A stretch of 64,000 bases of DNA, taken from Chiloscyllium plagiosum. Its lineage: Eukaryota. Both the position numbers and the translations under genes were made by a program. Within the stretch, counting starts at the first letter, position 1. Every line of letters begins with the position of its first letter. The stretch spans positions 163,439 to 227,438 of the forward strand of contig NC_057753.1 of the NCBI RefSeq assembly GCF_004010195.1, read 5' to 3'. The notes beneath the pieces are model-generated. The model made no database searches. It was not told where the DNA came from and was given only the letters and a program-made list of their open reading frames with translations. Positions 6,362-28,152 of this stretch are shown piece after piece.

Positions 6362-7404
6362 GTAGATGATCACCGGTGTTTGGAGCGGATTATGTGATAG
6401 GAACAGACTGCGCACAACAACGGCCTGTAGTTCTCCAGATGATGTGACGTATCAGGCGTGTGACAGTAAAGGTGACGATCCCAGTGACTAAGGAGGAACC
6501 CCAGCTTGACCCCAGCCAGGCGAGGTCAAAGGGCCACCCGTAATCAAAAGGGCAGCTCAATTTCTTGACTTCTGTCCGAATGAGAGTCACCAAATTGGAG
6601 ACATTTTCCGAGTTGTAGGTGCAGCTTTCCCGCCCAACACCAGCACAAGGACCACCCTCTTTTGGAGAATAGAATATCCAAGTGGTTCGGAAGGGCCACT
6701 GTTTGACCTGCCACTCGCTCAGCGTTGACCCCCTGGTCAGGGCCTCCGCGGTGTCATTGGCGACCGTTTCCAATCCTGTTGTGAATTGGCTCCATCCTCG
6801 GGAATGCAGATAGATTCCAATCAGAAGGGAAGGCATCCCAACCCAGGTGAGGAATGCGGTCTTGGGCTTCAGGGGTGAAGGGGACCCATCTGAGACTCTG
6901 ATGTGAGATGCGACATGTCCCATCCCACACGGCCCTCTCCAATCTGAGGGAAGCCAAGGATAGGCCTCAGACCCCAAATAAAACAGCAGGTTAAGTTGGA
7001 AGCTCAGCCCCCTCCGCAACATGGGAGCTGGGTCTCGCTACAGGGAGCCTGACGTCTCATTAAGGACACCGGACCCATTCAATATAACAGTAACTTTGGC
7101 TTGTCAAATTCTGGAGAGGCTCAATCCAGGGGAAAATAAAGGGACATCGCCTCGACCCCACATGAGTGTCAGTAGAGACATTCCCATGTTGTCTGAAGGA
7201 AGTGGTGTTGCTGATGGTGCTGTTAAGGCTTCCAGGGGAAGGGGGCACATGGGATCTGTTACAGTCGGGTTGGTACCCATCTCAGAATGGGGCCAGGCGT
7301 ATACCCTGCTGACGTCCACTCCTGCACGTGCTCAGAGTGATCGGGCTGGCCTGCAGAGTTTCGGTGTGTTAGCCATTCACTTACTTCAGGCCAGCTAAAG
7401 GATA
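6362..7404 (-). pseudogene. Retroviral env remnant (gamma-type TM), frameshifted
   Basis: Heptad TGLETVANDTAEAL, ISD-like ALPNH-LDILFS in an adjacent frame, KEGGPCAGVGRESCTY (degenerate CX6CC), hydrophobic WGSSLVTGIVTFTV. Confidence 0.8.
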
Positions 7405-8037
7405 TATGGGGGGGGGAGGAGTTGTCCCACCTTACCGAAGGAGGGGGCCGTGACCCCGAGCAGCCTCCTGGGCGGCAGCGTTGCTGAGGGACACCTCGTC
7501 CTTCGCGGTTATATGAGCGCCACGTGTGGCCACCGCGACCGGTGAACGGTAAACCGCGGTAGGTCGGCGACGAGACTCACGGGTTGGACGGGTTCACCGG
7601 AGGAGGGGGTAAGCCCACGGTTTCTCCGGGACGTGCCCAAGCCACAGACCGAACCCCCCCCCAGCGGGGGAACGTGACAGGAAATGGTGGAAACCGTTAA
7701 CAGAGTTTCCCCGCGGCGAGGAGGCGCGCACGGGAGTGAGCGGCAAAGCGTTTGGTCAATTGGGCTGGAGTCCCGGGCGGGGAGAGCGCGCACCCCTTGC
7801 GTTTTGATGGGGGGGGGGGGGCGCGACCGCCAGTGAGTGGGACACGGTCAGGTGTGTCAAGGAGGAGGGTTGGGTGGGGGGGTAAATCAGGGCAGGGAGA
7901 GGTCACAGCGTCCAGTGAATGCAGGTGGGGAGGTTCCGAGTCGGAGGAAGGAGGACTAGTCCCAGTCCCCCTTTCAGCTCGGAATGCCCCGCCCGCTATT
8001 CCCTCCCTTGCCGTTGTCAGATCCCATAATCTTCGGG

Positions 8038-8055
8038 ATCCTGCCGACTACGCCA
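8038..8055 (-). other. Primer-binding site, tRNA-Ser
   Basis: Minus strand TGGCGTAGTCGGCAGGAT is complementary to the 3' 18 nt of vertebrate tRNA-Ser(AGA/TGA), ATCCTGCCGACTACGCCA; 5 nt from the LTR CA end. Confidence 0.9.
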
Positions 8056-9114
8056 GGTTCTGTCGAGGACATGACTCAGTCTGAGGCTTTGAGTCTTGCT
8101 TCAAGAAACTTTATGTTTTTGTGAATTCAGCGAGGCTGCCGCAGGCTTTAATCCCAGGGCAGTCCCTCTCCAGCTGAGCAGTCAGCCGATATTTCCAAGG
8201 ATACAAACGCCTTTTGGTTGTTTTATTCAGTTACATTTCCGCACTCGAGTAATGTTGAATACCATTTTTCAAGATAAAGAAAGGCACGGGGGGGGGGGCA
8301 CTCCCTTTGTTCCCGATGTTGCTCACATCCTGAGGGACTGACCAACTTAAGGTACACTCCCTAGATTTCATTGAATGACAATTACGCTACCTCAGGCTTT
8401 ATCTCCAGCAGGATTGTTCTACCGGGCTGAGAGCCAGGTCACCTTTTGCCTCGGTCAAGTATCCCATCATGCAGCAGTGCGCCAAGTTCTTATGACTTCC
8501 ACAGGGGAGCAGACTCTGGAAAGGTCAGTCTTAAAGATATTGCCATCCTTTGATGACACCTTTGTGTCCGGCTGAAAGGATGGTCTCTTTTCGGAAGATC
8601 CCAATTAATGGGTTCGTTTCCCCACCAGTTAATAGGATGGGATAGTGATATCAGTTATCCATTGGTATTATACAACTCTCATGCTGCTGCTGGAGTCTTT
8701 TTTTTTTGTCTTGAACTCATCTGGCTGATGCCAAGAATACCAAATCTGAAAGAGACCAATAAGTGATATAGCGCCAGAAACCTGCAATAGCCTCTAGATT
8801 CGGTGTTGGAACCATTTTCAGTTGTGCTAAACCCTTCCTCTGGTGATACCGTCACCCAATCAGTCCCCACAGCTGGTATTTGTGTTGCGTTTTGGGATAC
8901 GTTTTCTTCAGACTGATCAAACAACGCAAGCAAGAAAGATTGTGGGCTCACATGTCGTTGAATCCTTGAAATCCATACACAGGCTGCTTTTGTTAATCTA
9001 CAGAGTGAAGCAACCTAGGTTACAGGGAAGGGTGGTCTCCTTTCCGACTGAGGCGAGGCGTTATTATCTCAGTGGGTTGTTAGTCCGACGTGAGTCTTCA
9101 TCTGCACATCCCCG

Positions 9115-25300: not shown

Positions 25301-27492
25301 ATGACACCGTGACCCTTCTTCAGGAGCTTTGGAAAACATCTCAGTGCACATCGCTCCATTGCAATGAGACCTTACTGGCAGGGGGCTGTGTCTTGATTAG
25401 CAGTGAGGCTTTCACAGAGTTTCTGCAGTGCAGAAGGAAGCTGTTCTGCCAATCAGGTTTGCAGTGTCCCTCTGAACAGCATCCCACCCAAACTCAGCCC
25501 TCTGTCCTACTCCCATCAACCCACACTAACCATGGCTAACTATGCAAGAACTTGGCGTACTGCTGCATGATGGGATACTTGACCAAGGTAAAAGGTGGCC
25601 TGGCTTTCAACCTCTCACAGCTGGAGTGGAAATCTACTGCTGGAGATAAAGTCTGAGGTTGTGGAATGAAAGTTTGCTGAAATATGGGGAGCGTATGTAA
25701 ACCTCGTAAGTCTGTGTCCTTGGGCAACATCGGGAAAAAAGGGACGCGTGCTCTGAGCTTATCTTTATTTTGAATTATATGTGTTCAACAGTCATAGAGT
25801 CCCCTACTGTGTGGAAACAGGCCCTTCGGCCCAACAAGTGCCCACCAGCCCTCCCAACCAAACCCATTCCCCTACTCTATTACTCTACATTTACCCCTGA
25901 TTCGGTCCAACCCGTCCCTGCCGACCAGATATCCCAACCCAATCTAGTCCCACCTGCCAGCACCCGGCCCATATCCCTCCAAACCCTTCCTATTCATAAA
26001 CCCATCCAAATGCCTTTTAATAGTTGCAATTGTACCAGCCTCCACCACATCCTCTGGCAGCTCATTCCATACACGTACCACCCTCTGTGTGAAAAGGTTG
26101 CCCCTTAGGTCTCTTTTATATCTTTCCACTCTCTTGTAATACCTGGACACAGATTTATCTGCCGTACTAATAAGGGCTTTTATATAGCTGTAATGATTGT
26201 GTTGTACGAGTCCAATGTCCAGAGATGGAGAGCTGTGAACGCATGTCTTTGAATTATTACTCTTTATTAGTTTGTTGTTGGTTATTATTTATTTATTTAA
26301 ATAGCTATTTGGGATTTTTTACTATATATTTTTCTATATATATTCCTGCATTTCAACATGAGGCAGGTTGTGTTTTTTAAATGTTTTTTTGTACTGTTTT
26401 GAATCGTATTGTTTTGTGTTTGTTATAATACTTAAAAATCTACTTGTAACGCACTGTGACTGTTTTCCATCGGAATATGGGAAGGGGATGGATCAGGGTC
26501 TTGGAGGGGAAGAGTTCAACCCTCTTTCTTCTGCGGCAGTGCGAGGTCAAACAGAGCATCAGATCCTTTGCATCGCTGGGCCTTGGAAGTTGAGCTTCCG
26601 CAGTCTGGCGGATTTCCCAGGATTCCCTTCTCGGGAAGCTGAGGGGAGATCACAACCGGCAAGGGATCCGCCGCAGGGGAAAAGATGGGAACTGAAAGGG
26701 TTTCCTTGGGAGGACGCGAGAGGGGCTGAGGAGGCAGGTGGTGGGCGAGTGTCAGACGGAGATGCCATCGGAATCGCTCCCGATCCCGTATCGAGATCAC
26801 CGACAATTCTCCTGGGACACACCAGCTTTGTCAATACAGGGGTTTGGGGAGGCAGAGGTTAGTTTCCCCTGGGTAGCCCTCCTGGGGAGAACTCCTCGCA
26901 CCGGTGCCTGGGGTCTCGGGTTTAGAGAGGAGCCCCAGCTACCGGAGAGTATGGCCCCTCGGTTATGGGAATAAAGGTGATCCCGACGCCCCGATACATT
27001 TCTGTATCTGGCCTATCCCAGCGCCCATCCCAGGGGGAACAGAAACTGCCTGGTGGGCACGTGCCCATACGCCGACCCATTCACGGGGGGTGCCCCCCCC
27101 CTGCGGCCCATATCCTTTAGCTGGCCTGAAGTAGGTGAATGGCTAACACACCGAAACTCTGCAGGCCAGCCCGATCACTCTGAGCACGTGCAGGAGTGGA
27201 CATCAGCAGGGTATACGCCTGGCCCCATTCTGAGATGGGTACCAACCCGACTGTAACAGATCCCATGTGCCCCCTTCCCCTGGAAGCCTTAACAGCACCA
27301 TCAGCAACACCACTTCCTTCAGACAACATGGGAATGTCTCTACTGACACTCATGTGGGGTCGAGGCGATGTCCCTTTATTATACCCAGGATTGAGCCTCT
27401 CTAGAATTTGACAAGCCAAAGTTACTGTTGTATTGAATGGGTCCGGTGTCCTTAATGAGACGTCAGGCTCCCTGTAGCAAGACCCAGCTCCC

Positions 27493-28142
27493 ATGTTGCG
27501 GAGGGGGCTGAGCGTCCAACTTAACCTACTGTTTTATTTGGGGTCTGAGGCCTATCCTTGGCTTCCCTCAGATTGGAGAGGGCCGTGTGGGATGGGACAT
27601 GTCGCACCTCACATCAGAGTCTCAGATGGGTCCCCTTCACCCCTGAAGCCCAAGACTGCATTCCTCACCTGGGTTGGGATGCCTTCCCTTCCGATTGGAA
27701 TCTATCTGCATTCCCGAGGATGGAGCCAATTCACAACAGGATTGGAAACGGTCGCCAATGACACCGCGGAGGCCCTGACCAGGGGGTCAACACTGAGCGA
27801 GTGGCAGGTCAAACAGTGGCCCTTCCGAACCACTGGGCCTTGGATATTCTATTCTCCAAAAGAGGGTGGTCCTTGTGCTGGTGTTGGGCGGGAAAGCTGC
27901 ACCTACAACTCGGAAAATGTCTCCAATTGGTGACTCGCATTCGGACAGAAGTCAAGAAATTGAGCTGCCCTTTTGATTGCGGGTGGCCCTTTGACCTCGC
28001 CTGGCTGGGGTCAAGCTGGGGTTCCTCCTTAGTCACTGGGATCGTCACCTTTACTGTCACACGCCTGATACGCCTGGAGAGCTACAGGCCGTTGTTGTGC
28101 ACAGTCTGTTCCTATCACATAATCCGCTCCAAACACCGGTGA
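27493..28142 (+). pseudogene. env TM remnant, frameshifted
   Basis: VALPNHWALDILFS (ISD-like LQNRxALDIL) and KEGGPCAGVGRESCTY in adjacent frames. Confidence 0.8.
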
Positions 28143-28152
28143 TCATCTACTT

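Follow-up and report, generated by a model that had tools for sequence, protein, structure and literature searches.

Why should two old, broken endogenous retroviruses (ERVs), facing in opposite directions, share a kilobase of nearly identical env sequence? The question is raised by a stretch of 64,000 nucleotides (the window) of the shark Chiloscyllium plagiosum (contig NC_057753.1, positions 163,439 to 227,438), in which two copies of an env segment lie inverted and 19.7 kb apart within two defective proviruses, provirus 1 and provirus 2. We believe that recurrent non-allelic gene conversion between these nearby inverted dead proviruses is the best reading, and we consider it probable. The two env segments are as follows.

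6362..7405, minus strand: env block, copy 1, covering the C-terminal part of the surface subunit (SU) and the transmembrane subunit (TM); broken; recognised by homology to TLV_coat env proteins.
27110..28150, plus strand: env block, copy 2; broken; recognised by self-BLAST and by pairwise alignment to copy 1.

In the self-BLAST, 6362-7405 matched 28150-27110 on the minus strand at 96.8% over 1050 columns. Pairwise alignment gave 19 substitutions in 1035 columns (1.8%; 14 transitions and 5 transversions; Kimura two-parameter distance 0.019) and three indels of 8, 1 and 6 bases, which bears out the view of the first-pass annotation, made from the letters alone, that the blocks are reverse complements a few percent apart. 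Among 170 dispersed repeat pairs in the window (at least 200 bp long, excluding pairs less than 2 kb apart and the tandem array at 42.8-46.5 kb), the env pair is the most alike; the runner-up stands at 94.7% and the median at 79.9%. The comparison of env with long terminal repeats (LTRs), which that annotation had proposed, gave 1.8% for env against 14-26% for the LTR pairs, and the contrast with the closest LTR pair is strong (Fisher p=3e-12). Two smaller details also held: the antisense open reading frames (ORFs) at 6982-7398 (+) and 27117-27533 (-) differ at 4 residues, counted from Met, and the immunosuppressive domain (ISD)-like segment lies out of frame with the EGG-C..C motif in both copies. 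A meaningful antisense ORF was ruled out by a single-base indel inside it in a related species.

The segment is an env relic that was already broken when the copies last exchanged sequence. The 215-residue frame of copy 1 matches TLV_coat (PF00429) env proteins at 32-34% identity (E 6e-19 and 2e-13). Its relatives, 27 representatives below E 0.001, reach 31-38% identity among the best matches, and none of those listed exceeds 38%; those named are mostly ERV env-like proteins of sharks (catshark, horn shark, sawshark). They align through the ISD and the cysteine loop, and TLV_coat was found in 10/10 of the relatives scanned. A Pfam search of the window's own env frames returned no match and a PDB search with the env frame returned none, and it is through its homology to these relatives that the block belongs to the gamma-type env (TLV_coat, PF00429). 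Alignment to them shows the reading frame shifting at identical positions in both copies, once in SU and again on either side of the ISD-like segment, and stop codons are common to both. These lesions therefore predate the most recent exchange of sequence. The old LTRs together with the shared breaks rule out that the pair arose from two recent insertions of an intact virus. Nor did we find the intact long frame under purifying selection that would mark a co-opted env of the syncytin or ENVV type, given the shared stops and frame changes and a neutral divergence between species.

The age of the proviruses is set by their LTRs, and the limits of the block by what each provirus has lost. The proviral features are:

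4818..4821, plus strand: left target-site duplication GGGG, with its partner at 8504-8507; the two flank both outer LTR ends of provirus 1.
4822..5144, minus strand: main piece of the provirus 1 3' LTR (p=0.217 to the 5' LTR over 309 columns).
5926..6231, minus strand: short interspersed nuclear element (SINE) near the start of the provirus 1 3' LTR; many copies in the window.
6232..6361, minus strand: 3' region of provirus 1, with a polypurine tract at about 6253-6262 and the LTR start at 6251; no counterpart in copy 2.
7406..8037, minus strand: leader and possible pol remnant, joined straight to mid-env at deletion junction 7405; CpG-rich; no env homology.
8038..8055, minus strand: 18-mer resembling a primer-binding site, starting TGG, 5 bases behind the LTR end.
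8061..8503, minus strand: provirus 1 5' LTR with TGT...ACA ends; high-copy family.
25546..25790, plus strand: provirus 2 5' LTR remnant, ended by SINE and CR1-like insertions (25790-26133); p=0.140 to 28454-28663.
26993..27109, plus strand: env SU sequence upstream of the block, copy 2 only; in tblastn, P0001 and P0010 match across 27110 without a change of frame.
28151..28449, minus strand: SINE where the 3' region, polypurine tract and LTR start of copy 2 would be.
28454..28813, plus strand: provirus 2 3' LTR, start missing.

The LTR pair of provirus 1 differs at p=0.217 (309 columns, 13 indels) and that of provirus 2 at p=0.140 (207 columns, 6 indels). With the SINE and further insertions nested in them, the pairs are thus old, as had been claimed, and those of copy 2 are closer to each other than those of copy 1. 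Between the proviruses p is 0.21-0.26, with 2-13 indels across the pairwise LTR alignments; on 165 columns common to all four remnants the LTRs are 20-35% apart, and 28-35% between the two proviruses. As Jukes-Cantor distances, the env pair stands at 0.019, the species described below at 0.074 and the LTR pairs at 0.155 and 0.256. Taken as a rough clock, this would make the proviruses about 2-3.5 times as old as the species split, with the last homogenisation at about a quarter of the split age; LTR dating is rough, as has been pointed out (PMC2567338).

At both edges the block ends where homology is lost. In copy 2, env homology runs upstream past 27110 (26993-27214 is matched by P0001 and P0010 in a single frame, E ~1e-6), whereas that of copy 1 begins at 7405; at the 3' edge, copy 2 gives way to the SINE tail (28151), whereas copy 1 continues to its polypurine tract and LTR. 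Since the edges differ by locus-specific loss, the block is the entire overlap of two differently deleted proviruses. The similarity does stop sharply near a G/C run, as first noticed; that run is the deletion junction of copy 1, with a C-run preceding the junction in both copies, and the edges are limits of homology (the junction in copy 1, a SINE-bounded loss in copy 2) and not the ends of a conversion tract. An unconverted pattern is seen in the separate LTRs only. Each copy is seamless in its own proviral context, copy 2 with upstream env and copy 1 with its downstream tract and LTR, which means that the block did not arrive as a loose fragment.

Whether the copies evolve in concert can be judged from other individuals. 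Read runs were assembled over 6236-8560, the copy 1 region only, for four of 24 runs; X1 and X2 are from the same species as the window and X14 is from a related species. The X14 block differs from the window at 30/447 and 42/576 sites (6.7-7.3%), its flank at 63/896 and its LTR at 18/241 (7.0-7.5%). Block and flank are equally diverged between the species (72/1023 against 81/1137, Fisher p=1.0), and sequence constraint on the block, suggested earlier in the form of a piRNA or double-stranded RNA source, is therefore not supported. Depth behaves differently: the X14 block contigs stand at 25.5 and 31.3 against 14.2 for the flank contig, and 15 single-contig rows picked by hand from the tables have a median of 16.4 (range 11.5-22.1). 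A model in which the block alone is doubled predicts 24.9 for the first of these contigs, where 25.5 was seen. The contig at depth 31.3 differs from copy 1 at 42/576 sites and by 5 single-base indels. Only 12 sites in its span vary between copies 1 and 2; at least 30 substitutions therefore separate both window copies from it. Paralogs are thus closer than orthologs (19/1035 against 42/576, p=2e-7), the pattern of concerted evolution. We infer that the X14 block contig represents two collapsed, near-identical copies orthologous to copies 1 and 2. The LTRs have diverged 2-3.5 times as far as the species, and within the copy 1 region that was examined the block is at double depth in X14.

Within the species, X2 shows the same excess (block 7.9-9.2, flank 3.9-4.4), and 7062-7158 is covered there by three distinct contigs, more haplotypes than a single diploid locus allows. 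Differences from the window number 18/1454 over 6236-6962 and 16/2876 on the flank (p=0.03), a raised diversity as expected for a conversion acceptor from a study of human LTRs (PMC4921805). X1, X2 and X14 each yielded one contig matching solely 7300-7404, at 85-88% and at the same contig offset, 228-332. This was considered as the true copy 2 and could not be placed there; it is read as another member of the env family, seemingly an old one common to both species. No RNA data set was listed with a match to 5900-8600, and the RNA run X22 gave 0/8.3 million reads on the copy 1 region, with about 6% of the run sampled, too little for a test.

Under recurrent conversion, the starting point would be two ancient, defective insertions from a single shark ERV family, inverted and 19.7 kb apart, in which deletions and insertions left the 1-kb env segment as the sole long uninterrupted homology. 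A break in one block would be repaired off the inverted copy as template, without crossover, so that the env segment would be copied between the loci repeatedly and separately in each species. The block would then evolve at the neutral rate yet in concert, disabling lesions included, and a kilobase of near-identity would keep itself convertible, while the LTRs, short, interrupted and 20-35% apart, would have diverged too far to participate. That conversion recurs, and that it proceeds without crossover, are both deductions from the pattern. The proposal of conversion between inverted repeats is thus upheld by paralogs 1.8% apart whose counterpart in a related species lies about 7% away at about twice the flank depth; if the related species is rightly read, the qualifier "recent" was too narrow and the process is recurrent.

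Several observations weigh against recurrent conversion. X1 shows no excess of depth (block 3.5, flank 2.9-3.2), and the X1 and X2 contigs shown cross both edges of copy 1 unbroken. Among the contigs listed, none spans the block with both flanks, and no X1 or X2 branch leads toward the copy 2 flanks (at low depth, and with a further 412 pieces and 188 loose ends beyond the listing). The junctions of copy 2 are seen in no independent run, since read coverage was confined to the region of copy 1. Depth measures copy number only indirectly, and a second X14 copy could lie elsewhere; among the X14 contigs are further env-family members at high depth (30.5, about 40, and two summing to about 99), which were excluded from the 15 rows. 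The 19 differences of the env pair are distributed evenly over the block (Kolmogorov-Smirnov p=0.69), and such a spread cannot separate one conversion event from many. Finally, the onset of exchange is unexplained, the LTRs of the two proviruses being 28-35% apart.

The evenness of the differences, and the other X14 contigs of high depth, are equally what would be expected had the env block been copied between the loci just once after the two species separated, by templated repair or by a small inverted duplication, with an unrelated extra copy accounting for the double depth in X14; the C-runs before the 5' junction in both copies could have served as microhomology. We think this unlikely, though worth holding in mind, as the depth of the first X14 contig fits a double-to-single change at the same edge and two independent doublings of the same kilobase would be less economical.

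An assembly artefact, in which the blocks are two alleles of a single locus or one block was used to fill in the other, strikes us as improbable. The scaffold has 7 gaps (N runs), one of them between the copies, it holds other local duplicates at 98-99% that resemble side-by-side alleles (39968-40589 against 41228-42329), and both the X1 depth and the want of independent reads over the copy 2 junctions would suit such an error. However, 1.8% exceeds the allelic divergence on the flank (16/2876, p=7e-4), the four flanks are all different and each fits its proviral context, X2 and X14 have double depth and X2 three haplotypes, and at 5 of the sites displayed, other individuals carry the letters of copy 2.

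The remaining alternatives involve the sequence between the copies, for which three further features are needed.

4440..4705, plus strand: putative promoter and non-coding first exon of a zinc-finger gene, suggested by motifs; donor-like GT at 4706.
10749..11796, plus strand: C2H2 zinc-finger coding exon between the env copies (zf-C2H2, 10 stretches, E 6.5e-64); acceptor-like site at 10748.
15284..15308, no strand: scaffold gap of 25 N, the sole gap between the env copies.

Had crossovers between the inverted blocks recurred, the 19.7-kb interval would flip and homogenisation would be a by-product, as in the yeast flip/flop. Arms of 1 kb at 98%, 20 kb apart, are a plausible substrate, and homogenised inverted repeats accompany re-inversion in yeast (PMC9731477). 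Against this, 13 of 18 informative LTR sites support pairing within each provirus, against 3 for a swapped and 2 for a third arrangement. Together with the GGGG match these sites indicate that the present arrangement is the original one and that no fixed inversion is needed; polymorphism is still compatible with them. A fixed inversion with swapped LTRs was ruled out, at only 3/18 sites, and the inversion-associated exchange first suggested is accordingly dispensable. The two sides of the gap carry consecutive parts of one minus-strand frame of a long interspersed nuclear element (LINE), the right-hand match being weak (E 0.09), which would fit a correct scaffold orientation. A flip would part the zinc-finger exon from its putative promoter and from the putative first exon at 4440-4705; it may therefore be selected against, and conversion could be favoured over inversion for this reason. 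On balance we rate recurrent crossover as rather improbable, a shade more so than an artefact. Somewhat less improbable than either, though doubtful, is a role for crossovers as a heritable switch, by which the zinc-finger exon would be flipped off its promoter, on and off alleles would be re-created in each species, and conversion would maintain an unselected hinge, a viral kilobase devoid of function but still able to recombine on both sides of the species split.

Sequence constraint, whether from a non-coding role (a source of small or double-stranded RNA, an enhancer) or from a protein, we regard as very improbable, for although a transcript that covered both inverted arms would let them pair and copy 1 keeps a stop-free frame of 215 codons, the block and flank divergence between species is equal, the frame changes around the ISD are common to both copies, copy 2 lies well beyond the poly(A)-like signals at 12542 and 13367, and no Rfam match at gathering score was found in 4000-30000.

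The closest known system to recurrent conversion as we see it here is the primate pair ENVV1/ENVV2 (ERV-V), described as neighbouring old proviruses with an LTR divergence of 0.27-0.37, env paralogs at 0.024 against orthologs at 0.140, and a tract of 1.2-1.5 kb over the ISD that recurs in each lineage (PMC2567338). The corresponding values here are 0.16-0.26 for the LTRs, 0.019 for paralogs, about 0.075 for orthologs and 1.04 kb for the tract. In the same source, the ENVV copies are in tandem, keep long open frames under purifying selection and are expressed in the placenta, and their tract ends inside continuing homology. In contrast, the shark copies are inverted, broken and neutral between species, and their tract fills all the remaining homology. 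The Saccharomyces chromosome XIV flip/flop likewise has inverted repeats around a gene-bearing interval of about 20 kb, homogenised within species and divergent between them, but its arms are 4 kb long and consist of needed sporulation genes, and both orientations are shown (PMC9731477), whereas here the arms are 1 kb of dead virus, known in one orientation. Conversion between non-functional ERV sequences is common among dead human LTRs, where it raises paralog similarity and allelic diversity (PMC4921805); in that case LTRs and dispersed donors are involved, whereas here the LTRs escape and an internal env segment is converted. Like other shark ERVs with a TLV_coat-type env, the present proviruses belong to the same Pfam family at 31-38% and are old integrations, and elephant shark ERVs are dated to more than 50 million years (PMC4422223). 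In full-text search listings of open-licence PMC and bioRxiv papers, no title or opening of an abstract dealt with conversion of shark ERVs (subscription literature and supplements are outside this scope).

Gene conversion itself is a known process; most likely it is seen here without a working gene to preserve. This would make the locus a neutral counterpart to ENVV1/ENVV2, with env paralogs about 98% alike across species in the absence of an open frame or selection. A pair homogenised under these conditions indicates that homogenisation alone is no sign of co-option. It also means that identity in internal genes can make ERV copies seem far younger than their LTRs do, here by about 8- to 14-fold in distance. 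The env pair is, in addition, a candidate inversion hinge around the zinc-finger exon.

Provirus 1 has paired LTRs of the TG...CA kind (TGT...ACA) and a duplication within the usual 4-6 bp (GGGG/GGGG), the latter being modest evidence in low-complexity sequence. Contigs of three runs depart at 8503, and the loose ends of 11, 16 and 15 contigs set this outer LTR end independently; in other family members the env 3' region is joined to the LTR likewise (joints to 6244). These are therefore true family LTRs. Summed depth in the bin 8420-8497 was 495, 878 and 2013, against 3-15 on unique flank. Further pieces of the 3' LTR lie at 5869-5906 (38 bp, matching 31/38) and 6232-6251, separated by insertions. 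The SINE at 5926-6231 is missing from the contig of the related species, which passes from 6236 into the LTR (joint 8478-6236), and it is probably a lineage marker. The possible pol remnant at 7406-8037 (CpG observed/expected ratio 0.83) found no match in Pfam, PDB, atlas or homolog searches, which thus gave no gag or pol homology for the short remnants upstream; it has what we take by eye to be an RNase-H-like motif, which the searches did not confirm. The 18-mer at 8038-8055 may match the 3' end of tRNA-Ser, and a tRNA gene search of the window found none. In provirus 2 the LTRs are present as remnants only, and no primer-binding site, polypurine tract or target-site match was found. Local alignment scored at best 18-40 between the upstream flanks of the two copies, and in the search beyond the LINE for the lost half of an LTR, so that neither comparison gave convincing homology.

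The putative first exon of the zinc-finger gene carries motifs at 4442-4582 that we take to be NRF1-like, a GC-box, two CCAAT boxes and an ETS-like site. The region 4440-4705 is not CpG-rich (observed/expected 0.23-0.36), and other donor-like sites lie at 4882, 7833, 9090 and 9487. A CpG-rich stretch at 7300-7900 in the upstream flank of provirus 1 (0.8-0.9, GC 62-67%) stands out in a CpG-poor window (0.41); it could be an unmethylated island or a promoter, and, lying inside the interval, it offers an alternative promoter for the zinc-finger gene. The coding exon begins with the motif MEKPWKC, which we assume to be typical of shark zinc-finger genes, and no KRAB was found among the 25 of 40 families listed for it. 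Its sequence from 10783 to 11796 is 70-76% GC and CpG-rich in a window of 47% GC.

Elsewhere in the window, 39968-40589 and 41228-42329 form a direct duplicate at 98-99%, the second copy holding a SINE and an N gap where the first is empty, apparently an allele with and one without the insertion, placed next to each other in the scaffold. Short neighbouring duplicates, 115-125 bp long and 97-98% identical (2459-2709 and 53379-53626, one beside a TG microsatellite), are possible contig-overlap artefacts. Four arrays with a unit of about 52 bp, on both strands and resembling part of the local SINE, lie at 9096-9989, 18494-18677, 18962-19428 and 29922-30586, and a tandem array at 42887-46430 has units of about 102 and 51 bp that yield long stop-free frames. 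Short inverted and repeated elements at 12812-13400 and 18380-18960, among which 12812-13044 matches 13400-13167 at 96%, have what we take to be the look of Penelope-type ends.

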